A stretch of DNA of 64,000 nucleotides from Bacteroidetes bacterium GWA2_40_15. GTDB taxonomy: Bacteria; Bacteroidota; Bacteroidia; Bacteroidales; VadinHA17. Below the pieces are notes generated by a model. The model saw only the letters and a program-made list of their open reading frames with translations. It made no database searches and was not told the origin of the DNA. A program made the position numbers and the translations under genes. Shown in pieces: positions 5,051 through 24,247 of this stretch. Where the stretch lies: NCBI GenBank assembly GCA_001768195.1, contig MENI01000112.1, positions 80,261 to 144,260 on the forward strand, given 5' to 3'. Within the stretch, counting starts at the first letter, position 1; each line of letters starts with the position of its first letter.

Positions 5051-5103
5051 AACATTTTTTTCAGACCTTTGCGGCCGGACTAACCAAGGTAAATTATTTC
5101 AAA

Positions 5104-6996: not shown

Positions 6997-7105
6997 TACA
7001 TGAACTTTTTTGACATTTTTTAACGATTTTAATAAAATATTTCTAACTTAGAATCAGATTTTATTCAACCGATCTTTAATAATAACCCACTTAATTATTC
7101 AAACT

Positions 7106-7804: not shown

Positions 7805-7827
7805 CTAACCTTTCCCTTTTAATAATA

Positions 7828-7975: not shown

Positions 7976-9919
7976 ATGACTAAAAACTGGCTGCTTTCCA
8001 GTAATATCTTTGGTGTTCTGGCTTACCGGATATTGATTGTAATGCTGCTATTTACGTTATGCAGAATTGGATTCTATATTTTTAATCTTCAGATGTTCCC
8101 GGGGGTCACCACCGGCCAGTTTATCAAAATCCTGTGGGGCGGTGTGGTTTTCGATGTTTCGGCCGCTGTATATATTAACAGCCTGTTCCTGGTGCTACAT
8201 ATTGTACCTTTTGATATAAGGTATAATAATGTTTACCAGTCTGTTATGAAGTATATTTACTTTGTGACAAATGGCATTGCCATAGCTATGAACGGCATGG
8301 ATTTCGTCTACTACAGGTTTGTTTACAAACGGGCAACAGCCGATGTTTTCAGCACATTTTCAAATGAATCAAATCTCACAAAATTGTTTTTCAGGTTTCT
8401 GACAGATTACTGGCCAGCTACTTTGTTCACCATTTTTCTTTGGTTCTTAATGGTTTATCTCTATAACAGGATTAAACCGGAAAAACCATCGCCTTCAAAT
8501 AAAATTGCTTATTATTCGATAAATATTCTTATGATACCTGTTGTTATAGCGCTTGTAATAGGCGCTGCCAGGGGAGGGTATAAACATTCTACACGTCCAA
8601 TAACTATCAGTAATGCAGCGCGTTATGTTGAAAATCCTCGTGATGTTGCGATTGTGCTTAATACACCTTTCAGTATTTTCAGGACCTATGGCAAGAAGGT
8701 TCTCACCAGGTATGAGTTCTTTGATGATGTCAGGCTTAAGGAACTTTATAATCCTCATCACATACCGTTATCAAAAGAGCCTTTCAGAAATGATAATGTG
8801 ATAGTGATCATTCTTGAAAGTTATGCGAGAGAGTATATTGGCGGATTGAATCCTGACCTGGAAGGGGGTAATTATGAAGGTTATACCCCATTCATTGATT
8901 CATTGCTTGGCATAAGCCTTACTTTCGATGTTTCTGTGGCAAACGGCAAAAAATCAATAGATGCTATGCCTTCCATCCTTGCTTCGATCCCATCACTTGA
9001 GACCCCGTATATCATTTCACACTATGCCAATAATCAGATAAACGGTTTTCCGGAGCTGCTTAAACGCAAGGGATACTATACTGCATTCTTTCATGGTGCA
9101 CCCAACGGTTCCATGGGATTCGATTCATTTGCAAAAATGATAGGATTTGATGATTATTTTGGTCTCGATCAGTACCAGGATAAAGACGATTTTGACGGCA
9201 TGTGGGGAGTATGGGATGAACCATTTTTCAATTTTTTTGCAGGGAAGCTCAACTCTTTCCGTCAGCCTTTTATGGCATCAATTTTTTCTGTCTCATCACA
9301 TCATCCTTTTGAGGTTCCGGAAAAGTATAAGGGAAAGTTCCGGAAAGGTGCTGCGCCTATTGTCGAAGTTGTGGGGTATACTGATTATGCTCTGAAGATG
9401 TTCTTCAATGAGGTATCTTCATCGCCTTGGTTTGCCAATACTCTTTTCGTGATAACGGCCGATCATACCAACGAATCGATTCACAAGGAGTTTCAGAATG
9501 ATTTCGGATCATACAGCATACCTGTCATATTTTATAAGCCCGGAGGTGATCTCAAAGGTGTTAAGAAGAAAATTGCACAGCAGGTTGACATTATGCCAAC
9601 CGTTCTGAATTATCTTAACTATGATGAAGATTTCATAGCTTTTGGCAATAACCTGCTGGATGATGCAAATGAATCATTCGGTTTCAATACAAACGGAAGT
9701 AATTACCATCTTTACATGAGAGATCATATTCTTGAAATGATCGACAGGAAAGCCATAGGCCTTTTTAATTTTAAAAGTGATATCTTTCTGGAAAAAAACC
9801 TGCTTGGCTCAGATCCGGAATTGCAGAACCTCATGGAAGACAAATTGAAAGCGATTATACAGACCTATAACAGCAGACTTCTTGATAATAATATGACTGT
9901 CAGAAAACCAAACAATTGA
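7976..9919 (+). CDS. LTA-synthase-family sulfatase / phosphoglycerol-transferase-like membrane enzyme
   Basis: 647 aa. About 5 N-terminal TM helices plus an extracytoplasmic alkaline-phosphatase-superfamily domain (VIVIILESYAREY..., SHHPF, ITADH). Confidence 0.8.
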   Translation: MTKNWLLSSNIFGVLAYRILIVMLLFTLCRIGFYIFNLQMFPGVTTGQFIKILWGGVVFDVSAAVYINSLFLVLHIVPFDIRYNNVYQSVMKYIYFVTNGIAIAMNGMDFVYYRFVYKRATADVFSTFSNESNLTKLFFRFLTDYWPATLFTIFLWFLMVYLYNRIKPEKPSPSNKIAYYSINILMIPVVIALVIGAARGGYKHSTRPITISNAARYVENPRDVAIVLNTPFSIFRTYGKKVLTRYEFFDDVRLKELYNPHHIPLSKEPFRNDNVIVIILESYAREYIGGLNPDLEGGNYEGYTPFIDSLLGISLTFDVSVANGKKSIDAMPSILASIPSLETPYIISHYANNQINGFPELLKRKGYYTAFFHGAPNGSMGFDSFAKMIGFDDYFGLDQYQDKDDFDGMWGVWDEPFFNFFAGKLNSFRQPFMASIFSVSSHHPFEVPEKYKGKFRKGAAPIVEVVGYTDYALKMFFNEVSSSPWFANTLFVITADHTNESIHKEFQNDFGSYSIPVIFYKPGGDLKGVKKKIAQQVDIMPTVLNYLNYDEDFIAFGNNLLDDANESFGFNTNGSNYHLYMRDHILEMIDRKAIGLFNFKSDIFLEKNLLGSDPELQNLMEDKLKAIIQTYNSRLLDNNMTVRKPNN

Positions 9920-9937
9920 AAATCAATATAACTCATT

Positions 9938-10777
9938 ATGAAATCACGTCGTCAGTTTTTCAGGTTAGCAGGAACAGGAATTCTTGCTGCAGGTGTATCT
10001 TCTGTTTATGGCTCACCATCCGCATCTTTATTAAAAGAAGAGGCAAAGGATCTTTTCACTCTCGGAATGGCAGGTTATACATTCCGGGAATTTCCAGTTG
10101 AAAAGGCAATTGAAATGATGAACAGGATTGGAATAAGCAACCTTTCTGTTAAAGATTTTCATATGCCTTACGATAGTACACAGGAACAGATAACTTCAGT
10201 AATCTCCAAATTTAAAGCAGGCGGGATTAACGTTTATGCTGTTGGTGTTGTTTACATGAAAACAGAAAAGGAAGTGGACCGGGCATTTGAATATGCAAAA
10301 ATGGCAGGGGTGAAACTTATTGTTGGAGCACCTGAGTACAGCCTGCTTCCATATGTTGAGAAGAAAATAAAAACCTATGATATAAGACTTGCTATTCATA
10401 ATCACGGGCCAGATAATCCACTTTATCCTAACTCAACAGATATATGGAATAATATCTGGGATAAAGATAAAAGACTTGGCATATGTATCGATATAGGTCA
10501 TACGACCAGGGATGGGAAAGATCCGGTTTTTGATATCCTGAGGTATGGTTCCCGTATATTTGATGTACATATCAAGGATGTGGACGGATCGACAAAAGAG
10601 GGCAAAACCCTTGAGATTGGCCGCGGCATTATTGACATACCGGGAGTAATTTCAGCTCTTCGGACAATCAGTTTTACAGGTATGTGCAGCCTTGAGTTTG
10701 AAAAAGATATGAAAGATCCGCTTCCGGGCATCTGTGAATCGATCGGATACTTCAAGGGAGCAATGAAGTGTAAATAA
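9938..10777 (+). CDS. Tat-exported sugar phosphate isomerase/epimerase (xylose-isomerase-like TIM barrel)
   Basis: 279 aa. Tat signal MKSRRQFFRLAGTGILAAG, and TIM-barrel motifs IHNHG and GHT. Confidence 0.8.
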   Translation: MKSRRQFFRLAGTGILAAGVSSVYGSPSASLLKEEAKDLFTLGMAGYTFREFPVEKAIEMMNRIGISNLSVKDFHMPYDSTQEQITSVISKFKAGGINVYAVGVVYMKTEKEVDRAFEYAKMAGVKLIVGAPEYSLLPYVEKKIKTYDIRLAIHNHGPDNPLYPNSTDIWNNIWDKDKRLGICIDIGHTTRDGKDPVFDILRYGSRIFDVHIKDVDGSTKEGKTLEIGRGIIDIPGVISALRTISFTGMCSLEFEKDMKDPLPGICESIGYFKGAMKCK

Positions 10778-10812
10778 GAAAGGCTAAAAGTGTATGGCAA
10801 AAGGCGAAAGGG
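10778..10812. repeat. purine-rich AAAGGC-type short repeat starting 1 nt after a TAA stop
   Basis: gaaaggctaaaagtgtatggcaaaaggcgaaaggg. Same unit family as the longer array at 26819-26882. Confidence 0.7.
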
Positions 10813-10859
10813 AATTAAGCCCCTTCCGCGGTGTAAGTATTATTTCGATTAAAAATAAG

Positions 10860-12125
10860 TTAATCTTCTGAACTCTGCAAGAATAACTTCATATCTGCGG
10901 TTCTGTGCTCTTTTCTCGATAACTCAGCTGCGAAAACGACAGCATGGGTCCTCAGAGCTTCAGCAGCATCCACGGTAACAGTGGTTGATGAGATAATTGA
11001 AGCAATCCATTCATTAACTATATCCTGATCTTCAGGGTGGTATGAGGTTGCTGCCGGTATACTTATGATCTCATTTCTTTCTCCTGAAAACTCCGTTATG
11101 CAAATTGTTCCATTGGCTTCATCGAACAAAAGTTCACCTTTTGTGCCCTGAATCCTCACCCTCCGGCCATTTGTGGAAGAATACCCTGTCAGAGTGCATG
11201 TGGCTGTGGCACCGCCTTCAAATTCCATCATCACAACCTGGTGATCAACAACATCATTGTCTCCTCTCCATACACAAATACCGTAGGGGCCATTTCTGAC
11301 CGCCTCCAGATGCGATTCTTTTGAGTGTATGCTGCAGATGTCTCTCGCCGGCCATTCTTCCAAAGGACCATTTACATATATTTTTAATGCAGAATAGGGA
11401 CATGTTTCAGCAATTCTGCATCCATCAGTGCATCGTTTGGTGCTTCCTTCCGGTGCATTTTCAGCAGTGAAGAATTTAAGCGAGCCGAAGGATGATACCC
11501 TTATGCATGGTTCATTGAATAGCCAGTTGATGAAGTCAATATCGTGGCTGCATTTATGCAGAAGAAGAAATGTATTGAGCTTTTCCTGCGACCACCGGCC
11601 CCTGACATAGTTATGTGTAAACCGCAGGTTGCCGATTGCTTCCATATGTTCGATGTGAATAAGTCCGCCGATTGCCCCGCTTTCGATAATCTGCTTTACC
11701 TTTTTATAGCCTTCCATGAACCTGAGGGTATGACATACTGCCACAACCTTTTTCTTTTCCTTCTGCAAATTCACTATTTTCAGACAATCCTCGAAATTAT
11801 CAGCGAGAGGCTTTTCGATAAGAATATGCCAGCTACGGTTCAGGCAGGCCAGTGCCGGGCCGGTATGCTGGTTATCGAGTGTGGTAATAACAGCAGCATC
11901 ACAATCCGGAGGATCAGCTGTCAGCGTCTCCCAGCCTGTGTAGGCACAATCATCTGAAAGGCCAAATTCTTCAGTGAATTTTCTTCTTTTATCATTATCG
12001 GGTTCAGCAACGGCAACAATCCTTGCCGGCAATCCCGATGTCTTTATTTTGCGGGCAAGGCTGGTACCTCTGACACCGGCACCTATAACAGCAATTTTCA
12101 GGGTATATGGATTCTCATTTATCAT
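10860..12125 (-). CDS. Gfo/Idh/MocA family oxidoreductase
   Basis: 421 aa. Rossmann N-terminus KIAVIGAGVRG, and the EKP motif (LIEKPLA). No signal peptide. Confidence 0.85.
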   Translation of the reverse strand: MINENPYTLKIAVIGAGVRGTSLARKIKTSGLPARIVAVAEPDNDKRRKFTEEFGLSDDCAYTGWETLTADPPDCDAAVITTLDNQHTGPALACLNRSWHILIEKPLADNFEDCLKIVNLQKEKKKVVAVCHTLRFMEGYKKVKQIIESGAIGGLIHIEHMEAIGNLRFTHNYVRGRWSQEKLNTFLLLHKCSHDIDFINWLFNEPCIRVSSFGSLKFFTAENAPEGSTKRCTDGCRIAETCPYSALKIYVNGPLEEWPARDICSIHSKESHLEAVRNGPYGICVWRGDNDVVDHQVVMMEFEGGATATCTLTGYSSTNGRRVRIQGTKGELLFDEANGTICITEFSGERNEIISIPAATSYHPEDQDIVNEWIASIISSTTVTVDAAEALRTHAVVFAAELSRKEHRTADMKLFLQSSED

Positions 12126-12126
12126 T

Positions 12127-12408
12127 TTATTCAGAGAAGATTACAAATATTCCATCATTATTCTTTGTGAAATAGGAGTATGTGCCACTGAAGCCATCAT
12201 CGTTGTTTCCTGTTGTATCCCACGAGGAGACCTGTTCGCAGATCGAATTATCAATATATTCAGGCAGTGAACTGATATTATAGATTGCATTCAGTTCTGA
12301 TGAAAGAGAATGTACCTTCATTATATCAGATTGAACAGAGGATGGGCTATTTTTACTGCAGCCGGCTGCCAGAATAAGTAAATACAGTAAATAGGCTGGT
12401 GTTTTCAT
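12127..12408 (-). CDS. hypothetical lipoprotein
   Basis: 93 aa. Lipobox LILAAGCSKN. Its stop abuts the start of the oxidoreductase gene with a 1-nt gap. Confidence 0.4.
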   Translation of the reverse strand: MKTPAYLLYLLILAAGCSKNSPSSVQSDIMKVHSLSSELNAIYNISSLPEYIDNSICEQVSSWDTTGNNDDGFSGTYSYFTKNNDGIFVIFSE

Positions 12409-12423
12409 AATTGATCTCGGGTT

Positions 12424-12924
12424 CTACATTGAGTTATTCAGGACCCTGCCGAACAGATACCGGAGTTTATTATTCAGTTCATTGCAAATCAGGTTTCGTC
12501 CTGAAAAACTCAGGCATATATTGCTTGCATTCTCTTTCTCCGAGCCACCATCTTCCATTATCATTTCAGCCTGAACACAGCTGACCGGTAGTCCTGAATC
12601 GGATTGTTTGCATACCCAGCATATTGAGTTAGGTGATTCTCTGCAAATATCCTTATTCAGAGATATATCGAGATCAGATATCTTAACTTTATATACCCAT
12701 TTAAATGGCCCGCCAAAACTCATCTCCACATAAAGTTCTTTTTCAGGAGTAATATCAATGGAGTTATAAAAATAAACGTCGTTAAATCCGTCATGGTATG
12801 GATTTGCCTTCAGGATGGCATTTATTGAATCAAGGCTTTCCTTAAAAGCGACGCTCTGTGAATTAAGGTAATTCTGCCCGGCAATCAGGAGAGTGAAAAC
12901 AATCATTATAATTGCTTTTTTCAT
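12424..12924 (-). CDS. hypothetical secreted Cys-rich protein
   Basis: 166 aa with an N-terminal signal peptide and 8 Cys in the mature part. No family recognised. Confidence 0.45.
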   Translation of the reverse strand: MKKAIIMIVFTLLIAGQNYLNSQSVAFKESLDSINAILKANPYHDGFNDVYFYNSIDITPEKELYVEMSFGGPFKWVYKVKISDLDISLNKDICRESPNSICWVCKQSDSGLPVSCVQAEMIMEDGGSEKENASNICLSFSGRNLICNELNNKLRYLFGRVLNNSM

Positions 12925-13120
12925 GGTTATCAGTTTTACAGATAATACCGTATAGGTTTTATGCCGGTATGAATATCCCCAAGATAGTGAAAGAATTCAA
13001 ATCATTGTGAAATTTTTGTTACGAGTTGCTTTTGACTCTCATTTTTAGTAATTTAGACGAGAGATTTGATGTTGATAATTCATGGGTTCGGGTTGGGTGT
13101 TGAATTAATACGGAAGCATT

Positions 13121-13318
13121 ATGGAATACTATATTGCACAAATAATTAAGGATACATGGGGGAACAAACCATGCGATCACCCTCACATCGAAAGGGAATA
13201 TTATTCCGGAGCATTCCTGACTAATTATGTTTGCGTGCTATGCGGGAAAGAGTTCACTATTGCTCAGAAACTGGAAATTGACGAAGAGCGCAAATTGTAT
13301 GTCAGAGAATTGCCTTAA
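13121..13318 (+). CDS. hypothetical small protein with possible zinc-binding C-x-H-x-H ... C-x2-C pattern
   Basis: 65 aa (KPCDHPH ... CVLCGKEF). Ends 12 nt before the next gene. Confidence 0.3.
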   Translation: MEYYIAQIIKDTWGNKPCDHPHIEREYYSGAFLTNYVCVLCGKEFTIAQKLEIDEERKLYVRELP

Positions 13319-13330
13319 GATTTCAAAAAC

Positions 13331-14503
13331 ATGAGAAAATGTATTGTTACAACCCTGGCCGGATTTATTCTGGTTTCGATGAATTCTGTGCTATCACAGG
13401 ATAAGCTGGTTATTAATGACAGGGCTCAGTTTCTTTCAGAATCTGTCGAATCGATGCTCCACGATCGACTGCTTACCGATTCGGTTGAGCTTACTTCGCT
13501 TATTGATAACAGGAAAAGGTGTGACTACTGGTTTGCAGCACTGTTGAGAACCGGCAACGATCTGCAACTTTCGGTACTTGATTGTAATGATAAGCAGGTG
13601 GGAAGCAAAAACCTGGGATCAAAGATACTCACGGCTGATGATTCAGAAAAAGCGCTTCTGCTTCATTTCGCAATTTCCGAGATAGTGAAGAATCCCTATG
13701 GCAATGTTGTTGCGATAACTCCTTCTTCAGTATCTCAGGAAGCCGTTTTGCCTGAAAGTGATCCGGGCCAGCATCGTTCGCGTTATTTATTTGCCCCTTC
13801 ATCACTTAACCTTGAGAAAGGAGAACTCTATTATAATACCCTTTATTTTTTAGTGCATGATGTACAATATGGAATTAGCGACAAGTTCTCTTTGGGAATG
13901 GGTACAACCATTATTGGCTTCCCCTTTTATTTGACTCCCAAATTAACTTTACCTGTGAATGAGAAATCTGCTTTTGCACTTGGTGATATGTTAATAATAG
14001 GTACCTGGGGCGCAAGCTTCACGGGGAATCTTATTTATGCGACATATACCAGGGGAAACACTTTCAATAACTTCACCGTAGGTGGGGGATATCTGGTTGT
14101 CGGAGGTAAGGATATAAGTGACAAAATCAACGCACCTGTATTTAATTTTTCAGCACTTGCCAAGGTATCCAGTCATATATACTTTATTACTGAGACCTAT
14201 GCTTCCTATCTTAAGGTTAATCAGACCGGTTATTACTATGACTATAATACAGGCATGTCAGATGAGCAGGACTTTGATCAGGAGAATTTTTTAATGTACA
14301 GCTTTTTCGGATTCAGGTTTATAAACAAAAACATTGATGTAAAATGCTGGCAGGTAGGTTTGTCTTTTGTTATTGCCGCATTTGGTGATATACCTTCACA
14401 ATATCAAAATTCTGACTACTATTCAACAGATGCAAATACCGTAAGCCGGGTTATTCCGATTCCCATGATAGGATACGCCAGGAAGTTCTCAACAAGGTAT
14501 TAG
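13331..14503 (+). CDS. hypothetical exported protein
   Basis: 390 aa with a signal peptide. The C-terminal half is rich in G/T/Y/F alternating segments and ends in an aromatic residue (RKFSTRY). This is compatible with a beta-barrel but unproven. Confidence 0.45.
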   Translation: MRKCIVTTLAGFILVSMNSVLSQDKLVINDRAQFLSESVESMLHDRLLTDSVELTSLIDNRKRCDYWFAALLRTGNDLQLSVLDCNDKQVGSKNLGSKILTADDSEKALLLHFAISEIVKNPYGNVVAITPSSVSQEAVLPESDPGQHRSRYLFAPSSLNLEKGELYYNTLYFLVHDVQYGISDKFSLGMGTTIIGFPFYLTPKLTLPVNEKSAFALGDMLIIGTWGASFTGNLIYATYTRGNTFNNFTVGGGYLVVGGKDISDKINAPVFNFSALAKVSSHIYFITETYASYLKVNQTGYYYDYNTGMSDEQDFDQENFLMYSFFGFRFINKNIDVKCWQVGLSFVIAAFGDIPSQYQNSDYYSTDANTVSRVIPIPMIGYARKFSTRY

Positions 14504-14518
14504 CAGGATTATTAGGAA

Positions 14519-16537
14519 TTATACTCTTATACCGATCACAAGAATGTCATCTGTCTGATCTTCATCATTGTTCTCCCTCCATTGTTCTATCTCCTGATAA
14601 AGCCTGTCGTTCTGTTCAGGCATTGAAAATTCCTGAATGCTCAGAATAAAGGATTTAAATCTGCTACGTAAATATTTTTTATGAGACAGTCCTCCGAACT
14701 GATCGGTATATCCATCTGAGCATAAGTAAATATTGTCCCCTCGCTTTAGCTGAATCTTTTCTGACAGAAACTGAAAGTCGCCATTTTCAACGCTGTTGGT
14801 TGAGTAATTTTTCGGGTAATATTCTAATACCTTACCGTCCCGTACATGATAAAATGGAATTCGTACTGATGAATAAGCAAGGATATTGGTCCTTAAATCA
14901 AAGTTGCACAGAACTATATCCATATCGTCGGACAGACCTGTTTCTTCTTCATCCCACCTGAGGAATCTGTGAACTCTCGAATAGAGATGTTGAAGGATTT
15001 CCGGAGGATTGGTAATATTCAACTCATTTACAGCCTGGTCGGTTATACCATAGCCTATTGTGCTGAGAAGAGCTCCGGGTATCCCATGACCTGTACAGTC
15101 AGCTGCCGCAAAAACAATCTGATTCCCTTTCTGACTGAAAAAATAAAAATCACCTCCTACTATATCCTTCGGTTTAAAGAGTACAAAACTATCAGGAAAA
15201 CATTCCCTTACAAAAAGATCATCGGGCAGAAATGTTTTCTGTATGTGATGTGCATAATTGTAGCTTCCCTGTACTTCACTGATCGTCTCTTCGATTTTCT
15301 TGTTTATGATCTTTATTTTTTCATCAATAGAAGGAACAGTGGATGCCATTTCTCTGATTTCATTATTTAGCTTTCGGGTTTCATTCAGAAGTTTATGGAT
15401 AGTGCTGTGTGGTTTTATAGAATAGGAGAGATTTCTGATCTGCTCAGGATTAACAGGATAGGCTTCAAATTCTATATCCTGAAGCAGGGCAGGGATTAGA
15501 CTGACGAGCTCTCTGTCCTTCTCTTTCTCTGATTCTGACAGCTCATCGTAGGGAATCAGTCCGGGGTGTATCTTCCTTCCATTGTCCTTGATATTCCCGT
15601 AAATCCAACCGTTAAGTCTTTTATCCCAGCTCCACCTTAGATGTTCAACCCTGGCCATTGTTTCAATTTCATCTGCACTCAGACGAAGTGTCAGAGCCTT
15701 AAATCCTGTCTGAACATGTCTTATCCTGTAACCAATTGATAATAGTTTGGTTGGAATATGGTATGCATTGTCTTTGTTGGAGGTTTTAATATCGTCAGGA
15801 AGGTTTTCAAAATCGGTTAAATATTGATTCCCTTCATCACCGGGATAAATGGATTCAGGAAGATCCTGTTCGTTTTCACCGGCAGGATTGTTTTTCCGGA
15901 TCTCATGCAGGTAGCGTGAATGTATCGCTCTTGCAAGTTTTCTTATTACAACCGGAGTGGTTGCTGAAACCTCTTCATGCCTTATTATCTCAAACCCGAT
16001 TTTCTTAAACTGCGGAGGAATCAGGTAGTTAAGCTCTCTGAAGTACCATTTTCCGGCAATGGGCATATCTTTTAAAGTTACCTGTTTCGGATCGATTTTT
16101 CTTCTTGTTTCGTTCTGATTTAAAAGTCCTGAACCGGTTTCTGCCGATTCCGGAAAGAATTGACCCTGGTCAATTGCTGCCAGTTTTTCAATCTCCTCAT
16201 CCGTTATTATGCATGTCCTGCAAAAGTCATCGAAGGGACGGATACAGAGGTTCAGTGATTTAAGTTTTACAGGTATCCCGGCAGTATATTCATACCACAC
16301 CTTTTGTTCATCGTGAGTTAACTGTCCGAATTTTTTATTTATAGTGAAGGGAGCTGTTATAAGAGAACTTGAGCGACGTATATCCTCATAAAGGGATTCA
16401 GCAATCGGATCAATGAAGTTTCTTCTGATTTTATCAGAGTCAGAGAACATTTCCAGAACTGTTTTACTGTCTCTGTCCTGGTGATAGATAATCTCCATCC
16501 ATAGGGCAATTTCTTTATCCTTGATTCGATTCTTCAT
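14519..16537 (-). CDS. RyR-domain-containing PP2C (SpoIIE-family) protein phosphatase, SiaA-like
   Basis: 672 aa. The central segment ARVEHLRWSWDKRLNGWIYGNIKDNGRKIHPGLIPYDELSESEKEKDRELV matches the RyR repeat consensus. The C-terminal 240 aa carry SpoIIE/PP2C motifs GGDFYFF, AADCTGHGIPGALLS, SDGYTDQFGG and DDILVIGIRV. Confidence 0.8.
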   Translation of the reverse strand: MKNRIKDKEIALWMEIIYHQDRDSKTVLEMFSDSDKIRRNFIDPIAESLYEDIRRSSSLITAPFTINKKFGQLTHDEQKVWYEYTAGIPVKLKSLNLCIRPFDDFCRTCIITDEEIEKLAAIDQGQFFPESAETGSGLLNQNETRRKIDPKQVTLKDMPIAGKWYFRELNYLIPPQFKKIGFEIIRHEEVSATTPVVIRKLARAIHSRYLHEIRKNNPAGENEQDLPESIYPGDEGNQYLTDFENLPDDIKTSNKDNAYHIPTKLLSIGYRIRHVQTGFKALTLRLSADEIETMARVEHLRWSWDKRLNGWIYGNIKDNGRKIHPGLIPYDELSESEKEKDRELVSLIPALLQDIEFEAYPVNPEQIRNLSYSIKPHSTIHKLLNETRKLNNEIREMASTVPSIDEKIKIINKKIEETISEVQGSYNYAHHIQKTFLPDDLFVRECFPDSFVLFKPKDIVGGDFYFFSQKGNQIVFAAADCTGHGIPGALLSTIGYGITDQAVNELNITNPPEILQHLYSRVHRFLRWDEEETGLSDDMDIVLCNFDLRTNILAYSSVRIPFYHVRDGKVLEYYPKNYSTNSVENGDFQFLSEKIQLKRGDNIYLCSDGYTDQFGGLSHKKYLRSRFKSFILSIQEFSMPEQNDRLYQEIEQWRENNDEDQTDDILVIGIRV

Positions 16538-16569
16538 TTGGGCAGGAATGTCAGATTTACCTCCGGGAC

Positions 16570-17481
16570 CTATTTGACATTCTTGGAGATGAACTGAAAG
16601 GGAATTTTCGACATCCTCGACATCTCCCTTCCAACCTCCAGCATATCCATGTCATCATCGTCATAATGCCATTTTATATGGATATCTTTACCCTTCGACC
16701 TTGCATCTCCGATCTGCTTGCAGAAATCGAGAATGTATTTTGCAGATGAGGAGTTAAAATACTCGAAATCGAGATTAAAAGTAACAGGTTCCCCTGTTTC
16801 CTGTGATTTACCGAGATGATGAGAATAGTCGTCCATCCAGCTGATTATCTCTTCATAGAAGGAAGCGACATCAGCAGGCCTGGATTCACCTGATATTTCA
16901 AACCTTTTCCTGTCAGGATCAAGAATTACCCTTGGTGAACTTACTGTCGGATCAATAATTAACTTTCTCATGATATACTTATTTACTTTAATCTGAATCT
17001 CAAAGAAAAGCTGTTTGCATTTTGTTCTGGTAAAGCCGTATTCAATTGGATTTCCCGACTTGAATTTCATCAGCATAAAACCCAGTCCGGCCCCGTTTCC
17101 ATTCTTTTCAGTGACCCTGTTTATCTTATCATCATACAGATGATTGAGTTCCTGGTCATCAACATTGTTTATCTGATCAAGTTTGCTACTCACAGAGATC
17201 TCCTTATCATCATTTACAGGATTTCCTGTTTTGATCACGATCTTCCCCATTGTTTTGAGAACTAAAATATAGGGAGGACAGATTTTACTTTCCGGAAGTA
17301 CTTTTTCAGAGTGCTTGAAAATATTCTCCAGACATTCCACAAGAATAGCATAAACCCTTTTAGCAGTAGTTCTGTCGAGAGAGAGGTATGCATCTGACTT
17401 CCTCAGTTTTTTCAGAAGCTTATCGATCACTTTCTGATCAACAGGTCCATTGTAATCCAATAGTTTAACTGAATCGGCCAT
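16570..17481 (-). CDS. fusion of a SiaB-like (DUF6272, GHKL-type) kinase domain and a SiaC-like (DUF1987) phospho-acceptor domain
   Basis: 303 aa. The N-terminal half (VYAILVECLENIFKHSE ... NGNGAGLGFMLMK ... IEYGF) resembles anti-sigma-kinase-like SiaB. The C-terminal half (SSPRVILDPDRKRFEISGESRPADVASFYEEIISWMDDY ... LDFEYFNSSSAKYILDF ... IKWHYDDDDMDMLEVG) is the DUF1987/SiaC pattern. Confidence 0.7.
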   Translation of the reverse strand: MADSVKLLDYNGPVDQKVIDKLLKKLRKSDAYLSLDRTTAKRVYAILVECLENIFKHSEKVLPESKICPPYILVLKTMGKIVIKTGNPVNDDKEISVSSKLDQINNVDDQELNHLYDDKINRVTEKNGNGAGLGFMLMKFKSGNPIEYGFTRTKCKQLFFEIQIKVNKYIMRKLIIDPTVSSPRVILDPDRKRFEISGESRPADVASFYEEIISWMDDYSHHLGKSQETGEPVTFNLDFEYFNSSSAKYILDFCKQIGDARSKGKDIHIKWHYDDDDMDMLEVGREMSRMSKIPFQFISKNVK

Positions 17482-17611
17482 CTGGAAAAATTTATTTTCC
17501 CGAATGCAATAATTTTACTAACTTGAATAACTTTAAACAAAGATAGGCTATAAGATATTCAAAATATGCACCGTGTATAATATTTTTTCTGAATCTTATT
17601 GCAACTAAATT

Positions 17612-20600
17612 ATGAGCGAGCCCATTCTCAGAGCTTTAATGCAACTCTTTGCATTAATAGGTGATATTCACGATGATACAATTATTACAGCAAGGGAAAA
17701 GGATATTGTCAGATTATTCCTTTCGCGGCATCTAAACAATGAACTGGTCTCAAAGTACATGAGCATGTTTGAAGAGTACCTTACTAAGTTTAATTCAGAA
17801 AGTATAATCAAGGGAAGCATTCAGGACCGTAAACGCACTTCCCTTAATGCCGTGCGAATACTGGCAATCTGTGAACAGATAAATAAGGAATTGAGGCAGA
17901 AGCAAAAGATTTATGTTCTTGTACAGCTTACCGACTTTATTTCATTAGGAGCTGAGATATCAGAAAATGAACTTGATTTTCTCTTTACTGTCGCTAAGGC
18001 CTTTAATATTCATGAGGATGAATATCTTGATATTAAAAGCTTTATAATGAATCCTCTGAATGAGTTTCATAATATCAGCAGGATTCTTATAATTGACAAC
18101 AGGAAACTGCCTGTCGATGAGGAGATAAAGCATGTATGGGATCCTAACCTTAAAGGCATGATACTCTTCCTTTTTATCAAGAGTACAAATACTTATATCA
18201 TGCGGTATTCCGGCAGTGAGGATCTATACCTGAACGGCCAGAACATAACCGCAGGTCAGACTTATATTTTCGATACCGGTTCATCCATCCGGGGTGCTGG
18301 TATCAATACTGTATACTTTACTGAAATTGCAGGAATCATATCTGAAGAATGGTACGATAGCAAGGTATTGCTTGATGCAATTAATGTAACCTATGAATTC
18401 AGGAATAGCGACAAAGGCATTCATAATCTTGATGTTCATGAAGAATCGGGTAAGCTTGTCGGAATTATTGGAGGCAGTGGTGTGGGTAAATCTACAACTC
18501 TGAGCGTTCTTAGCGGGAGTCAGAAACCTGATAAGGGAGAGGTCAGAATAAATGGCTATGATCTGTATGATGAAAATGACAAAGAGAATCTCAGTGGTGT
18601 TATAGGTTTTGTTCCACAGGATGACCTTCTGATCGAGGAACTGACTGTTTACCAGAATCTTTATTACAACGCAAGGCTTTGCCTTAACGATCTCCCTGAT
18701 GATAAGCTGAGATCTGTTGTGGATAGAAGTGCTGCAGATCTTGACCTTGAAGAGACACGTGATCTCAAAGTTGGAAATCCCCTGAATAAAGTTATCAGCG
18801 GAGGACAGAGAAAAAGGGTGAATATTGCACTCGAACTTATCAGGGAACCTACAATCCTTTTTGTAGATGAACCAACCTCCGGTCTCTCATCGGTTGATTC
18901 AGAAATTGTGATGAATCTCCTTAAGGAACTAACCTACAAGGGCAAGCTGGTAATAGTCAACATACATCAGCCGGGCTCTGATATCTATAAGATGTTTGAT
19001 ACGATAATTATAATAGATAAGGGAGGATACCAGATTTTCTGCGGTAATCCCACAGAAGCTATTATATATTTCAAGACTCTGAGTAATCATGCAAATCCTC
19101 TTGAAGATCAGTGTATTACATGTGGTAACGTAAATGCTGATCAGATACTTCAGATAGTTGAGGCTAAAATCATTGATGAACATGGCAGGCCTACTGCAAT
19201 AAGAAAAGTGACGCCTGAGGAGTGGGCTAAGAAGTACAGGAAGGGAGTCATTGGAACTGCACTGAGAATACCTGACGGAAAACAGAAGCTTCCTGCTAAC
19301 AAATACAACATTCCCGGATTACTGAACCAATCCGTTATATTCTTTATCCGCGATTTTTTATCAAAAATTGCAGACAAGCAATATATCCTTATAACCCTCA
19401 TGGGTTCACCTGTACTGGCTTTTCTTCTTGCATGGTTTACCAAATACGATGATGGACAGGAATATAAATTCAGTACAAATGCAAACATACCTGCATATAT
19501 TTTTATGTGCGTCATTACCTCATTGTTCTTCGGACTGATGGTGGCATCTGAGGAGATCGTTAAAGACAGGAAAATTCTGAAGAGGGAATCTTTCCTCAAT
19601 CTGAGCTGGTTCAGTTATCTTAACTCAAAGATCATGATGATGTTTCTGATTTCTGCAATTCAGACCATTTCCTTTATTCTTATAGGAAACTTTATTCTTG
19701 AGATCAGGGGTATGACACTGATTTACTGGCTTGTGCTCTTTACCACATCCTGTTCTGCTAATATGCTTGGACTGAATATATCTTCGGCATTTAATTCAGT
19801 GATAACGATTTACATTATTATCCCATTCATAATTATACCACAGTTACTTTTCAGCGGAGTTATGGTGAAGTTTGATCAGCTGCATAAAGGCAGATATGCC
19901 TCTCACGAGTATGTACCGGTGATCGGCGATTTTATGACTGCCAGGTGGGCGTTTGAAGCCATAGCTGTAAAACAGTTTAAAGACAATGAATTCGAGAAGC
20001 ACTTTTACAGGAGCCATGTTATTAAAAGTCAGAATATGTATAATGCCATACTTATAGATGAACTTTCAAAAGAATTATGGAGGATCAGCCATTTATTTGA
20101 CGCCACAGGCATATTGATTGATGACAAATTCAAGAAAGAGATACTTGAAGAAAAGTTACAGAAACTGAATTATCATATTGATGAATTGACGACTCGTTCA
20201 GGTATTCCTCCCGGTCCATGGTTATCGCTGATGAATGAGAAGCAATTTAATAATGAAATAAGCAGAGATGCACTTATATTTCTTGATTCACTTAAGAGGT
20301 ATTTTCTGAACCTTTGGAGCGATGGCAACTTGATTGAAAAAACCGTGACCGATTCAATACAGAGAGCAATAGGGCCTGAGGAATTCTCCCGACTCAGGGA
20401 TAAATACCAGAATGAACGTCTTGAATTTCTGGCCCTGGATCAGGATAATCTTCGGAAAACTGTTCACACAGAGAATAAAATTGTACAGAAAATGGATCCT
20501 GGCTTCATGAAAACCACATCAAGAGCAGGTCGGTCGCATTTTTATGCACCATCTAAAATAATCTTTAATAAAGAGATAGATACTTACATTTTTAACCTCT

Positions 20601-20716
20601 CGGCCATCTGGCTGGTTACATTTTTGCTTTACGGGGCTCTGTATTTTAAATTGTTGCAGAAGTTTATTACTATATTTGGGAATATACGGATGAGGCGATC
20701 TGAACAGAACAGTTGA
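17612..20716 (+). CDS. ABCG-type (NBD-then-ABC-2 TMD) transporter with an N-terminal TerB-like domain and a beta-rich linker
   Basis: 1034 aa. Walker A GGSGVGKST, signature ISGGQRKRV, Walker B ILFVDEPTSGLS, then about 6 TM helices, a long coiled-coil tail and a final TM helix. The first 150 aa or so look like two TerB-like helical repeats. Confidence 0.85.
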   Translation: MSEPILRALMQLFALIGDIHDDTIITAREKDIVRLFLSRHLNNELVSKYMSMFEEYLTKFNSESIIKGSIQDRKRTSLNAVRILAICEQINKELRQKQKIYVLVQLTDFISLGAEISENELDFLFTVAKAFNIHEDEYLDIKSFIMNPLNEFHNISRILIIDNRKLPVDEEIKHVWDPNLKGMILFLFIKSTNTYIMRYSGSEDLYLNGQNITAGQTYIFDTGSSIRGAGINTVYFTEIAGIISEEWYDSKVLLDAINVTYEFRNSDKGIHNLDVHEESGKLVGIIGGSGVGKSTTLSVLSGSQKPDKGEVRINGYDLYDENDKENLSGVIGFVPQDDLLIEELTVYQNLYYNARLCLNDLPDDKLRSVVDRSAADLDLEETRDLKVGNPLNKVISGGQRKRVNIALELIREPTILFVDEPTSGLSSVDSEIVMNLLKELTYKGKLVIVNIHQPGSDIYKMFDTIIIIDKGGYQIFCGNPTEAIIYFKTLSNHANPLEDQCITCGNVNADQILQIVEAKIIDEHGRPTAIRKVTPEEWAKKYRKGVIGTALRIPDGKQKLPANKYNIPGLLNQSVIFFIRDFLSKIADKQYILITLMGSPVLAFLLAWFTKYDDGQEYKFSTNANIPAYIFMCVITSLFFGLMVASEEIVKDRKILKRESFLNLSWFSYLNSKIMMMFLISAIQTISFILIGNFILEIRGMTLIYWLVLFTTSCSANMLGLNISSAFNSVITIYIIIPFIIIPQLLFSGVMVKFDQLHKGRYASHEYVPVIGDFMTARWAFEAIAVKQFKDNEFEKHFYRSHVIKSQNMYNAILIDELSKELWRISHLFDATGILIDDKFKKEILEEKLQKLNYHIDELTTRSGIPPGPWLSLMNEKQFNNEISRDALIFLDSLKRYFLNLWSDGNLIEKTVTDSIQRAIGPEEFSRLRDKYQNERLEFLALDQDNLRKTVHTENKIVQKMDPGFMKTTSRAGRSHFYAPSKIIFNKEIDTYIFNLSAIWLVTFLLYGALYFKLLQKFITIFGNIRMRRSEQNS

Positions 20717-20792
20717 TAATCAGTTCTGTGTTCCTTTCCCGAGATCCTGATAACTTCCGGGATCATGAGATATGTAATTAAAAAGAGAAATT

Positions 20793-21911
20793 ATGATTGG
20801 ATTTATGGTTTATATCTTCATTCTGGCAGAGATACTTTTTGCATACCCGGTTGAAAGCTTTTCAGACCGGTCCCCACTAAAAGATTCCGGGACGATTGAG
20901 ATTCGCGGGATCTATGGCAGTCCCGATCCATTCTGGAACAGGAATATCAGTCTAAATCAGCTCAATGTTAATGCAATATTCCTGAACTGGCATTATATTA
21001 ATCCAGAACTTATGGAAAGGGTAAAGGAGGAGGGAGTGAAAGTCTTTGCCGAATTTCCGGTGCTCAACGGTAAAGGGTATGTTGATAAGCACCCGGAAGC
21101 CTGGGCAATTGATCGCTACGGGAAGAAAGTGGAACCGGCATCTTGGTTCATGGGAGTTTGCCCTACAGAACCCGGATTCAGACAATACAGGATGACCGAG
21201 CTGATTGAACTGCTAAAGAGATTTGATCTCAGTGGCATCTTCATGGATTATATGCACTGGCATGCCCAGTTCGAAGAGCCTGAACCGATACTTCCCGAAA
21301 CATGTTTCTGCCGGAATTGTATAAGCACTTTTGAGTCTTATGCAGGTTTAAGTGTACCGGACAACAGCACTGTGGAGCAGGCAGCCTGGATCCTGTCAAA
21401 GCACGATAAAATATGGAGAGAATGGCGATGTTCTGTAATAGCAGGCTGGGTGAAAGATACCAGGACCATCCTTAAGAAGGAGAATCCTGAAGCTCTTCTG
21501 GGGATATATCACTGTCCATGGAATGATGAGGAGTTTTACGGAGCCAGGTACAGGATACTTGGACTCGATTATGATATGCTTAAAGGATTAACAGATGTAT
21601 TCTCACCAATGGTCTATCATGGACGGATGGGGAGAGAGCCTGAATGGGTAAAACAAAACATAGAATGGTTTTCAGGTAAGCTGGGAATAAAGCCTGGTTC
21701 GTATCCCAAAATATGGACGATTGTTCAGGCTTACGACGAACCCCGAAAGATCGGGGCGGAAGAGTTTGAGAAAGTTATGCGTTATGGGGCAGCCGGCGGG
21801 TCCACAGGAGTGATGATGTTTACCACGAATGCTGTGGCCGAAAGTCCTGATAAGACTGAGACCCTGAAGCGAATCTATTCTGAGTGGCTAAAAGATAATA
21901 ACACATATTAA
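20793..21911 (+). CDS. exported glycoside-hydrolase-like TIM-barrel protein (GHL-type), function unknown
   Basis: 372 aa. N-terminal hydrophobic signal/anchor and an (alpha/beta)8-like pattern with GIFMDYMHW. The family call is tentative. Confidence 0.45.
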   Translation: MIGFMVYIFILAEILFAYPVESFSDRSPLKDSGTIEIRGIYGSPDPFWNRNISLNQLNVNAIFLNWHYINPELMERVKEEGVKVFAEFPVLNGKGYVDKHPEAWAIDRYGKKVEPASWFMGVCPTEPGFRQYRMTELIELLKRFDLSGIFMDYMHWHAQFEEPEPILPETCFCRNCISTFESYAGLSVPDNSTVEQAAWILSKHDKIWREWRCSVIAGWVKDTRTILKKENPEALLGIYHCPWNDEEFYGARYRILGLDYDMLKGLTDVFSPMVYHGRMGREPEWVKQNIEWFSGKLGIKPGSYPKIWTIVQAYDEPRKIGAEEFEKVMRYGAAGGSTGVMMFTTNAVAESPDKTETLKRIYSEWLKDNNTY

Positions 21912-21969
21912 GCTGAACCATATGAATATTCAAATTCACCTCAGTCATTTACTTTAAAAATACATTTCC

Positions 21970-23124
21970 ATGAAGGACAATCGCCGTAACTTTATTAAAA
22001 AAAGTGCTGCCATGGCAGCAGCAGTTTCAGTAACAGGTTTAAGCGCCTGCACAGGATCGGGAAACAAAGGTCCGAAAGATAAAACAACTGAAGCGTCAGC
22101 AGACAGCCCATCCTCAAAGGTTCAGTGGCCTGTTGTATTCGGACCTGACAAACCAAAGATCTGTGTTGGTATTGGTACAGGAGATACCAAAATGATGAGG
22201 CAATACAAACAGGTTGGAGTGGATTATGTGCTCATGGGAGGTCCTAAAGTACCATGGACAGAACAAAGCCTTCGTGAAATAATGGATCCATTTAAGGCTG
22301 AAGGCCTGACGGTTATAAATATGATGATAGGTGGCAATCAGAATATAATATACGGACGCGAAGGACGCGATCAGGAGCTCAGAAACATTCAGGATTCAGT
22401 TGTGGCTGCAGGTAAAGCCGGACTTCCTGTAGTTGAATACAATTTCTATGCGCACCGGTTTATGGCAGGATACTACGAAGTCCTGGCCCGTGGCGGATCA
22501 GGGACAACTGCATTTGACTATGAGCGTGGTAAAAACCTTCCTTCGGATGAAGGAACATTAATGACCGCAGAAGCCCTGTGGAATAATATTACCTGGTTCC
22601 TTAAAGCTGTCGTCCCTGTTGCAGAGAAAGCAGGTGTGCGACTTGCTCTGCACCCGAATGATCCTCCTGTACCTGTTTCATACGGACATGCACAGATCAT
22701 GGCTACATTCAATGACTGGAAAAGACTGATTGAAATTGTCGACAGCCCGTCAAACGGAATGACATACGATTGTGGTGTTTCCAAGGAGATGGGAGAAGAC
22801 CCTCTGGAAGTGCTTCGCTATTTAGGTTCACGCGACCGTATCAACCATATGCACTATCGCAATGTCACTGTGCAGCAGCCTTATTTAAAGTATGAAGAGG
22901 TATTCTTTGACGAAGGTGAAGTAAATATGTTTGCTGTAATGAAGGAGGTCTTCAGTATCGGCTATAAGCTTGGAATTTATCCTGAACATGCAAGAGCTAT
23001 TGATTATGACAAGGAACATCCCGGGGGCATTCGTAACCAGTATCCGGGAGGTGGAGGTTATGCAGGCCAGGTATATAATGTCGCCTATACCAAAGCCATG
23101 ATGCAGGCAGTAGCATCGATGTAG
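21970..23124 (+). CDS. Tat-exported mannonate-dehydratase (UxuA)-family protein
   Basis: 384 aa. Tat signal NRRNFIKKSAAMAAAVSVTGLSAC. UxuA-like motifs LALHPNDPPVP, INHMHYRNV, FDEGEVNMFAVMKEV and YPEHA. Confidence 0.7.
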   Translation: MKDNRRNFIKKSAAMAAAVSVTGLSACTGSGNKGPKDKTTEASADSPSSKVQWPVVFGPDKPKICVGIGTGDTKMMRQYKQVGVDYVLMGGPKVPWTEQSLREIMDPFKAEGLTVINMMIGGNQNIIYGREGRDQELRNIQDSVVAAGKAGLPVVEYNFYAHRFMAGYYEVLARGGSGTTAFDYERGKNLPSDEGTLMTAEALWNNITWFLKAVVPVAEKAGVRLALHPNDPPVPVSYGHAQIMATFNDWKRLIEIVDSPSNGMTYDCGVSKEMGEDPLEVLRYLGSRDRINHMHYRNVTVQQPYLKYEEVFFDEGEVNMFAVMKEVFSIGYKLGIYPEHARAIDYDKEHPGGIRNQYPGGGGYAGQVYNVAYTKAMMQAVASM

Positions 23125-23158
23125 ACTAACCACGGACTCCAGTCCGGGGACTGCTCCC

Positions 23159-24247
23159 ATGATGAATCTAAGTAACCTCACCAGGAACTTCCTCCAGTTC
23201 ATGAAACTTGCCTGGAAGATGTACCATGCCAATAACACCTTTGGCAGTTACCACAGGTATGTAAAGCGGGTGGCAGGGGATACAATCCGTCAATCGCTGA
23301 TGCTTAATGATGAAAGTATACCAGAGAGGATATACAAAAAAATCCAGTGGTATATGGTTGAAGCAGTTTTTATAGGTGAGATGCTTGCCCGAATGGCAGA
23401 TAATTCAATAAGCAAAAGGGATAAAGAAAGCCTGATATATCTTGGTGCCATAATGGCTTTGTTTGATGTTATCGTTGATGATATCAGGTTGAAGCGGGAT
23501 ATTGTAAATGAGATACTTGAACATACTTTTTCAACTACCGGAAGTAAACCTCCTGCCGGAGACAGCGCTATCGTAAGAGTATACTTCCTTTATGTCGATA
23601 AGCTTATAGCTACAATTGATAAGGAACAGTGGCGGGAGATATCAGGACATCTCAATATTATCAGGCTTCAGATGAAGAGCGATGAGCAACTCATGAATAG
23701 CATAACAGAGGAGAGTGTTAATTCAATTACACTGGGAAAGGGAGGAGTAGCCACGCTGATCTGTTCTGTTTTCCTTCAGCAGAAAAGTGAATCTTTCAGG
23801 GAAGCAGTATTTGAACTCGGAGGTTTTATCCAGATGATGAATGACTGTCAGGATCTGCACAAGGATACTGTTGCCGGTATTAAAACGTTTGTGCATTTCA
23901 GCAAAGATTTCAGTGAGATATTTAATAAACTGGATGAAAAGCGCATGAAAACCTTTCATCTGATACAATCGCTTGATTACTCGTATAAAGGACGCAAAGA
24001 GACTTTATTTGATCTGAATGCAATGTTTATTGTTATTTCATATAAGTTGCAGAGGTATGCTGAGAATAGTAATTATAGTCTTGATTTTAAGTTCATTGCC
24101 GATATGAACAAAGAAGATTTCAGGATTAATCCTTTTTCACCTGCAGCTGTTTCAGCCTGCCTCGGAAAAATACTGAGATTTAATTTTGAAAATTGTGAAC
24201 TGACACCTGATTTTAAATTTGAACAGGCAGACCGCAGTAAAAGATAA
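23159..24247 (+). CDS. hypothetical protein with class-I isoprenoid-synthase-like Asp-rich motifs
   Basis: 362 aa, all-helical by composition and no signal peptide. FDVIVDDIRLKRD and GGFIQMMNDCQDLHKDTVAGIKTF resemble the first and second Asp-rich motifs of polyprenyl synthases. Confidence 0.4.
   Translation: MMNLSNLTRNFLQFMKLAWKMYHANNTFGSYHRYVKRVAGDTIRQSLMLNDESIPERIYKKIQWYMVEAVFIGEMLARMADNSISKRDKESLIYLGAIMALFDVIVDDIRLKRDIVNEILEHTFSTTGSKPPAGDSAIVRVYFLYVDKLIATIDKEQWREISGHLNIIRLQMKSDEQLMNSITEESVNSITLGKGGVATLICSVFLQQKSESFREAVFELGGFIQMMNDCQDLHKDTVAGIKTFVHFSKDFSEIFNKLDEKRMKTFHLIQSLDYSYKGRKETLFDLNAMFIVISYKLQRYAENSNYSLDFKFIADMNKEDFRINPFSPAAVSACLGKILRFNFENCELTPDFKFEQADRSKR

Follow-up and report, generated by a model that had tools for sequence, protein, structure and literature searches.

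A three-gene signalling unit, in which a PP2C phosphatase with a ryanodine-receptor (RyR)-repeat sensor and a single-chain fusion of a SiaB-type kinase with a SiaC phosphoprotein stand divergently to an ABCG-type ATP-binding cassette (ABC) half-transporter, is encoded in a 64,000-nucleotide stretch of contig MENI01000112.1 from Bacteroidetes bacterium GWA2_40_15 (hereafter the window; Table 1), and this unit is real and widespread in uncultured Bacteroidales. Its domains recall the SiaABCD system of Pseudomonas aeruginosa, composed of the PP2C SiaA, the kinase SiaB, the phosphoprotein SiaC and the cyclase SiaD (10.1101/674879, PMC8457831). We tentatively read the locus, with slightly less than an even chance of being right, as a SiaABC-type partner switch that has been rewired at both ends and has the ABC transporter as its output. 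An earlier reading of the DNA, made from the sequence alone and called here the original prediction, described the switch as rebuilt; it is not a one-off, and belongs to a common and conserved Bacteroidales family that already carries automatic labels for both domains, several homologues of the fusion being labelled as SiaB-family kinase or SiaC/DUF6272 by NCBI/JGI.

A Kinase and a SiaC Domain in One Chain

The two open reading frames (ORFs) of the original prediction, for the phosphatase and the fusion, were found at their positions and sizes together with the strings ARVEHLRWSWDKRLNGWIYG...HPGLIPYDELSESEKEKDRELV and YFNSSSAKY, and profile searches for the RyR, SpoIIE, SiaB/DUF6272 and DUF1987 domains all gave matches far beyond chance. 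In the 303-aa protein, Pfam recognizes DUF6272 (E 1e-25) and, at residues 176-299, SiaC/DUF1987 (PF09345; E 4.7e-31, 107 bits against a cut-off of 24.5). When a profile of 20 fusion homologues was compared with the PDB, the N-terminal half matched SiaB (6KKO_A, E 1.3e-14) and the C-terminal half matched SiaC (6K4F, E 1.3e-10; also 6KKO_C), and the single-chain architecture is thereby supported by profiles for both of its domains. The fusion passes the cut-off of the NCBIfam model SiaB_fam_kinase (NF038262; 99 bits vs. 85) and stays below that of the SiaB equivalog (NF038264; 52 bits vs. 225); judged by these scores, its kinase domain is a member of the SiaB family and not a SiaB orthologue. 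Glu49 of the fusion corresponds in the alignment to Glu61, the residue predicted to be catalytic in SiaB, and a serine, Ser244, stands at the position of Thr68, the experimentally mapped phosphosite of SiaC (10.1101/674879). Across the 20 homologues Glu49, Asn53, the glycine-rich box Ala131-Gly134 and the FEYFNSSSAK stretch are invariant, while the acceptor serine is kept in 149 of 149 SiaC matches examined; the catalytic and acceptor residues of the fusion are intact, and phosphorylation of Ser244 is predicted.

The fusion is not an artefact of assembly or of a frameshift, as the best 120 of 660 homologues in a large protein collection are all two-domain proteins of ~303 aa and the same ORF is present in dozens of independent assemblies. 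A scan with one genome per species placed relatives, counted as fused forms plus adjacent siaB and siaC, in 347 genomes, nearly all from uncultured Bacteroidales or other Bacteroidota. This first genome scan was searched with the FNSSSAK motif, so that its set is biased, a bias from which the ABC-anchored scan described below is free. The fusion occurs in hundreds of protein clusters and, though widespread, its locus is so far restricted to uncultured Bacteroidota.

Distant matches, with at most ~44% identity, turned out on ORF inspection to be adjacent separate genes, siaB (~168 aa) and siaC (~130 aa), and a comparison of the junction shows how the two were joined. The window reads AAT AAG TAT ATC ATG AGA where a split relative, the Marinilabiliaceae metagenome-assembled genome (MAG) locus L050, reads AAT AAA TAA ATC ATG AGA, and the proteins read VNKYIMRKLII and INK-stop-IMRKLII, respectively. 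Because the TAA of the split form corresponds to TAT in the window, the fusion arose through loss of a stop codon. Met171, the former start of SiaC, is retained and invariant in the fused forms, and there is practically no linker. Since fused and split junctions differ by a single nucleotide, one could suppose that the fusion in the window is a sequencing error, with TAA read as TAT in what are two separate genes; however, Tyr169 is nearly invariant among the fused forms (20 aligned homologues) and over 100 protein clusters, drawn from independent assemblies, show the ORF as continuous, leaving this explanation a negligible chance.

SiaC and the ABC Transporter Form the Constant Pair

The neighbourhood of the fusion was examined in two directions. 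Among fused loci found via the fusion and having upstream room, the ABC gene is the divergent neighbour in 46 of 51, and the co-occurrence of RyR-PP2C with the fused architecture, a survey proposed along with the original prediction, was seen directly downstream in 33 of the 41 loci that hold the fusion and the ABC gene and have downstream room. Three of these 41 carry instead, according to Pfam, a convergent response-regulator (REC)-PP2C together with a histidine kinase, and in one a different PP2C is encoded at another place in the locus. In the other direction, an independent metagenome scan, for which the first 245 residues of the ABC protein served as the only query, gave 70 loci whose upstream sequence extends for at least 1.1 kb. 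SiaC adjoins the ABC gene in 67 of them, as a SiaB-SiaC fusion in 51 loci, split in 7 and as SiaC only in 9, with none in the last 3; in each of the 9 SiaC-only loci, RyR-PP2C follows the SiaC gene. Judged from these counts, SiaC and the ABC transporter are the constant pair, whereas the kinase may be joined to SiaC, form a protein of its own or be encoded elsewhere. The earlier remark that the transporter is the only partner in the locus was strongly reinforced by this two-way conservation.

RyR is also the sensor of the phosphatase in 55 of 59 informative loci, and otherwise the phosphatase is a REC-PP2C with a histidine kinase or a TPR-PP2C (as in L050). The sensor is exchangeable between RyR, REC and TPR, against a constant background of SiaC and the ABC gene. 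In distant split systems from Flavobacteriales, Sphingobacteriaceae and Chitinophaga, the ABC gene is missing and TPR-PP2C genes are found instead.

Several individual loci depart from the common arrangement. The SiaC-only loci (L113, L116, L129, L131, L134, L135, L147, L149, and L159) have the same ABC gene and RyR-PP2C, and the ~200 bp up to the ABC start are too short for a SiaB domain, so their kinase must be encoded elsewhere or absent. In L050, two paralogous ABC genes, at 4707-7805 (-) and 8919-12008 (-), flank the split siaB-siaC pair, with the TPR-PP2C gene further upstream. A Bacteroidales MAG (JBEKDR010000033; L039:7344-8912, +) encodes a 522-aa protein in which an N-terminal TIR-like domain is fused to SiaB-SiaC (Pfam TIR_2, E 1.5e-4, 22.6 bits and thus under the 28-bit threshold; motif FEYDIFISYRQKD), in a locus where a REC-PP2C gene is convergent and an ABC neighbour is lacking. 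The SiaB-SiaC proteins of L046:7518-8891 and L048:7518-8897 (both +), of 457-459 aa, possess an extra N-terminal region of ~185 aa whose only match is a weak one to DUF4145 (E 0.12); the ABC neighbour is again absent, and in L048 a TPR-PP2C lies upstream of the SiaB-SiaC gene.

The N-Terminal Module of the Transporter

Pfam identifies ABC_tran and ABC2_membrane in the transporter, the core of which (278-758) aligns end to end with the ABCG1/ABCG2 half-transporters, and finds nothing in residues 1-250. An AlphaFold2 (AF2) model of this N-terminus, built from 31 sequences with a mean predicted local distance difference test score (pLDDT) of 83.8, shows a seven-helix domain and a small beta-sandwich. 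For the helical part, Foldseek returned the TerB-like protein PG1108 (2H5N), and some homologues of the N-terminus carry the Pfam TerB domain (PF05099). For the beta-sandwich, the best 26 PDB matches were all FHA domains, with a probability of up to 1.0 and E ~0.02. The sandwich would thus be a degenerate FHA-like domain according to the model and, if it is involved in the switch at all, is unlikely to be a classical phosphothreonine reader.

This N-terminal module was found by exhaustive search in 633 representative clusters, always as residues 1-240, and in full-length members it occurs only at the N-terminus of proteins of ~1000-1050 aa. A first protein search with the ABC N-terminus had returned mostly truncated gene calls, and full length was settled by the exhaustive search; in a first comparison of the N-terminal profile with the PDB, the matches were dominated by a few nucleotide-binding-domain residues included in the alignment. 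At the other end of the protein, the C-terminal extension has no family match in Pfam, and it is conserved in relatives at lower identity.

A Phosphatase with a RyR-Repeat Sensor

The 672-aa protein matches SpoIIE/PP2C in Pfam (E 2.3e-16), and the closest solved structure for its catalytic half by PDB sequence match is SiaA-PP2C (6K4E, E 1.6e-29); the motifs GGDFY, DCTGHG, SDGYTDQFGG and DDILVIG are invariant or nearly so in 31 sequences. The NCBIfam SiaA model (NF038263) covers only residues 388-672 and reaches 170 bits against a cut-off of 700, and the likeness to SiaA is therefore confined to the catalytic part. RyR and SpoIIE are both present in the best 120 of 638 phosphatase homologues. 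With regard to the start of the gene, a database protein of 100% identity, P0210, which is found on 12 contigs (the longest of 154.8 kb), is annotated with 659 aa from Met14 instead of Met1, leaving the true start uncertain by 13 residues.

The Pfam RyR domain (PF02026) covers residues 291-346 of the phosphatase with E 2.4e-15 and 57 bits against a cut-off of 27.4, and PDB sequence matches join this region to the RyR1/2/3 chains (E ~1e-16). No hydrophobic or transmembrane segment was detected in the phosphatase or the fusion protein, so that the cytoplasmic RyR sensor described in the original prediction is upheld; the single repeat it recognized, however, has to give way to four. An AF2 model of residues 1-433 (pLDDT 76.7) contains four repeats that share a helix-helix-strand pattern and lead into a long helical linker. 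Foldseek with this sensor model yielded 25 matches with E <= 1e-3 (best E 4.5e-5), every one of them a Repeat12 with ~200 columns aligned; several of these structures were solved with ATP/ADP, among them human RyR3 848-1055, in one case with ATP and in another with dantrolene plus ADP. In hhalign, repeat C (279-365) matched repeat A2 (106-190) with a probability of 98.2 and E 2.8e-14, and the pair B+C (191-365) matched A+A2 (28-190) with a probability of 98.6 and E 6.6e-16. The sensor thus consists of four RyR-like repeats arranged in two Repeat12-like modules.

Only repeat C has the canonical His299, Trp302, His324, and Asp341, which are invariant in the 31-sequence alignment; the other three repeats are degenerate at the His/Trp/His/Asp positions, repeat B having His206/Tyr209 where His/Trp would be expected. 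Trp302 aligns with Trp893 of RyR2, which we take to be the equivalent of Trp881 at the nucleotide site of RyR1. Repeat12 modules bind ATP/ADP at a Trp-lined site with a clamshell-like closure (PMC12627627). Moreover, a 2026 preprint describes phage RyR-domain proteins (RyDEP) that bind or cleave 2'/3' cyclic ADP-ribose, with the ligand residues His75, Trp78, His100, and Asp117 stated to be conserved across PF02026 (PMC13232231). The spacing of His299/Trp302/His324/Asp341 equals that of RyDEP H75/W78/H100/D117. The original prediction considered the bacterial function of RyR to be essentially unknown, which is partly out of date after these two reports and in view of the equivalent residues being invariant here, although for RyR-domain proteins of cellular bacteria we know of no ligand. 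From these ligand-type residues, we infer that the sensor would respond to an adenine-containing ligand.

Proposed Mechanism and Alternative Readings

In the scheme that we propose, the GHKL-type SiaB domain would phosphorylate Ser244 of the SiaC domain, and because the two are tethered without a linker, the default state of the fusion would be the phosphorylated (off) state. The cytoplasmic PP2C would then be the only regulated step. Its two Repeat12-like pairs may close around an adenine-containing ligand, such as ATP/ADP, ADP-ribose or a cyclic ADP-ribose-type signal, and closure could be relayed to the catalytic domain via the long helical linker. Dephosphorylated SiaC would bind the TerB-like/FHA-like N-terminal module of the half-transporter and change its transport activity towards a putative substrate, in a presumed parallel to Pseudomonas, where unphosphorylated SiaC binds and activates SiaD (PMC8457831). 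DUF1987 proteins have been proposed to modulate adjacent proteins generally (PMC8457831). The more specific version, in which the RyR sensor reads an intracellular signal derived from adenine nucleotides (the energy charge, ADP-ribose or a messenger of the cyclic ADP-ribose type) and the one-protein switch gates an ABC exporter through direct binding of SiaC to the TerB/FHA-like module, strikes us as less probable than the general one, and unlikely as it stands.

A number of observations weigh against this scheme. The contact between SiaC and the transporter is suggested by gene neighbourhood and by analogy, and the FHA-like assignment by the fold (E ~0.02), whereas a profile of the beta-sandwich searched against PDB sequences gave no FHA support (best E 0.3, to unrelated proteins). 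The phosphate-binding Gly-Arg and Ser-x-x-His residues are not evident in the sandwich, where no conserved Arg comes after the conserved Gly182. Canonical FHA domains do not read phosphoserine, and the SiaC acceptor was always a serine in the 149 cases examined, which makes a classical phosphothreonine-FHA interaction unlikely. The RyDEP residues were mapped by spacing and not by alignment to the RyDEP sequence, four of the 41 loci with fusion and ABC gene have no PP2C inside the locus, SiaC is absent from 3 of the 70 ABC-anchored loci, and every locus found comes from a MAG.

In the manner of flux-sensing transporters that signal to kinases, the ABC transporter could be the input and not the output, its TerB/FHA-like module reporting flux or substrate load to SiaB-SiaC with the output elsewhere. 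Gene neighbourhood gives no direction, and the locus contains no further conserved output gene; both points speak for such an arrangement. However, the phosphatase already has a dedicated and swappable sensor at the usual input position of partner switches, and two inputs without a local output would be less economical; in the only characterised system, moreover, SiaC acts on an adjacent protein (PMC8457831). We consider a transporter input rather improbable.

Equally improbable in our estimation is that the kinase domain itself is the effector binder, acting like an anti-sigma factor that releases its target, be it the transporter N-terminus, a sigma factor or another protein, when dephosphorylated SiaC folds back in cis. 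The GHKL fold that SiaB shares with RsbW/SpoIIAB, seen in the fusion as a weak HATPase_c match, is consistent with this, and a junction without linker would favour an intramolecular interaction. Yet 9 of the 70 ABC-anchored loci keep SiaC and RyR-PP2C without a SiaB next to SiaC, the link to the transporter following SiaC, and no member of a sigma-factor family was detected among the genes flanking the module (7976-24247), though a distant target is possible.

Still less probable is a role in nucleotide-based conflict or defence signalling, in which RyR would read a cyclic ADP-ribose-type alarm and the transporter would move a toxic or protective compound. Such a role would agree with the binding or cleavage of 2'/3' cyclic ADP-ribose by phage RyR-domain proteins (PMC13232231) and with the TIR-like (L039) or weak DUF4145-like (L046, L048) N-termini of related SiaB-SiaC proteins that lack the ABC neighbour. 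The TIR match, however, scores 22.6 bits against 28 and that variant uses REC-PP2C and not RyR-PP2C, and the genes flanking the module belong to ordinary carbohydrate metabolism. PADLOC finds nothing beyond a generic ABC ATPase similarity, and an identity as anti-phage defence system was rejected on this ground.

Comparison with Known Systems

Compared with P. aeruginosa SiaABCD, our locus has homologous PP2C catalytic, SiaB-family kinase and SiaC domains, the genes are clustered, the acceptor residue occupies the equivalent position, where the same helix begins, and presumably phosphatase and kinase likewise act against each other on one residue. It differs in that kinase and substrate are one polypeptide and that the acceptor is Ser and not the Thr of Pseudomonas. 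Cytoplasmic RyR repeats replace the two membrane spans and HAMP domain of SiaA, which is membrane-anchored (10.1101/674879). The conserved neighbour is an ABC transporter, and there is no GGDEF protein or SiaD. In keeping with the original prediction, a motif scan of the whole window for GG[DE]EF, covering all ORFs from 60 aa upwards, gave no match, and a GGDEF/EAL output was rejected on this ground. All three NCBIfam equivalog models score far under their cut-offs, and four of six features of membership in the Pseudomonas SiaABCD system were absent.

The nearest analogy for an ABC exporter under phosphorylation control is Rv1747 of Mycobacterium tuberculosis, which carries FHA domains and is regulated by PknF, a Ser/Thr kinase (PMC3138270). 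Both transporters are ABCG-like, with the nucleotide-binding domain first and a cytoplasmic N-terminal module that is FHA or FHA-like, and both are encoded beside a Ser/Thr phosphorylation system. In contrast to the true FHA of Rv1747, the FHA-like domain here is short, gives no profile match, has no obvious phosphate-binding residues and is preceded by a TerB-like domain. Regulation would be exerted by a GHKL-kinase/PP2C switch on a separate STAS-like protein and not by a Hanks kinase on the transporter; no Hanks-type Ser/Thr kinase was found in the locus, where the GHKL-type SiaB domain is the sole kinase.

With animal RyR Repeat12 and phage RyDEP, the sensor has in common the fold, the tandem pseudo-symmetric pairs and the His/Trp/His/Asp set in the canonical repeat, and it differs in serving a protein phosphatase and in having four copies, three of which are degenerate. 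RsbU/RsbV/RsbW and SpoIIE/SpoIIAA/SpoIIAB resemble the locus in their SpoIIE/RsbU-family PP2C with N-terminal sensor and helical linker, and in a GHKL kinase acting with a STAS-like phosphoserine protein, and the REC-PP2C variants among the relatives recall RsbY. Here, unlike in those systems, kinase and antagonist are fused, flanking genes include no sigma factor, and the output is apparently not transcriptional. In the literature, no paper was found on a SiaB-SiaC fusion, on RyR-PP2C or on a partner switch linked to an ABC transporter.

Layout of the Locus

The phosphatase and fusion genes lie on the same strand with a gap of 32 bp, and a 130-bp spacer separates the fusion gene from the divergent ABC gene (Table 1). 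Within this spacer, a Bacteroidetes -7 box (TAnnTTTG) is present as CAAAGATA on the + text at 17538-17545 and faces the fusion operon; in the form TATCTTTG it recurs in 96 of the 119 homologous spacers. The box is followed by another conserved stretch, TTCAAGTTAG at 17518-17527, which recurs as TCAAGTTA in 59 of the 119 and could be an operator or leader element.

The genes that flank the module in the window are metabolic and unrelated to it, and they are not conserved with the module. Neither the 390-aa nor the 372-aa ORF has a counterpart in the 80 genome loci, for which reason they are not regarded as part of it, and a 166-aa ORF is common only to the window and its closest relative among these loci. 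The 390-aa ORF, at 13331-14503 (+), lies directly downstream of the phosphatase gene in convergent orientation and has a signal-peptide-like N-terminus; it gave no match in Pfam, NCBIfam or PADLOC.

Table 1. Genes, domains and sites of the signalling unit, in positions of the window (residues are those of the respective protein).
Feature	Position	Strand	Basis or remark
RyR-repeat PP2C phosphatase gene	14519..16537	-	672 aa, cytoplasmic
PP2C catalytic domain, residues 433-672	14522..15241	-	motifs as given in the text
Long helical linker, sensor to catalytic domain, residues 379-432	15242..15403	-	AF2 helices 379-398 and 402-432, modest confidence
Canonical RyR repeat C, residues 279-365	15443..15703	-	Pfam PF02026; His299, Trp302, His324, Asp341
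RyR-like repeat B, degenerate, residues 191-278	15704..15967	-	hhalign B vs. A2, probability 96.1
RyR-like repeat A2, residues 106-190	15968..16222	-	hhalign vs. repeat C
RyR-like repeat A, degenerate, residues 28-105	16223..16456	-	AF2 secondary structure; hhalign B vs. A, probability 84.8
SiaB-kinase/SiaC-phosphoprotein fusion gene, single chain	16570..17481	-	303 aa
SiaC/DUF1987 domain, residues 171-299	16585..16971	-	PF09345, 6K4F, 6KKO_C; begins at retained Met171
Ser244 codon, predicted phospho-acceptor (SiaC Thr68 position)	16750..16752	-	alignment LYLNTSSIK / EYFNSSSAK
Tyr169 codon TAT, fusion junction	16975..16977	-	TAA in split relatives
SiaB-type kinase domain (GHKL-fold, DUF6272), residues 7-166	16984..17463	-	NF038262, 6KKO_A
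Divergent control region, 130 bp	17482..17611	.	between fusion operon and ABC gene
ABCG-type half-transporter gene with N- and C-terminal extensions	17612..20716	+	1034 aa, conserved partner
TerB-like helical domain, residues 1-146	17612..18049	+	AF2, seven helices, pLDDT mostly >85
FHA-like beta-sandwich, degenerate, residues 158-228	18083..18295	+	AF2 and Foldseek
Nucleotide-binding domain, residues 271-423	18422..18880	+	PF00005
ABC-2 type membrane domain, residues 575-763	19334..19900	+	PF01061, hydrophobic windows
C-terminal extension, ~235 aa, ending in one hydrophobic helix (~992-1015)	20009..20716	+	hydrophobic window 992-997

Implications for SiaC and RyR Domains in Bacteria

Proteins of the SiaC type (DUF1987) are widespread, yet to our knowledge a diguanylate cyclase is the only output that has been characterised for them. 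The fusion family points to a second target of SiaC, the ABC transporter, and offers hundreds of natural pairs for testing it. Since the RyR repeats serve here as the sensor of a phosphatase whose substrate would lie on the neighbouring protein, bacterial RyR sensing becomes assayable by dephosphorylation, and the one-nucleotide difference between fused and split forms constitutes a natural experiment on the tethering of a kinase to its substrate. If the more specific version of the proposed scheme is true, a bacterial RyR domain would for the first time have a cellular function, and a transporter would for the first time be the output of a partner switch.

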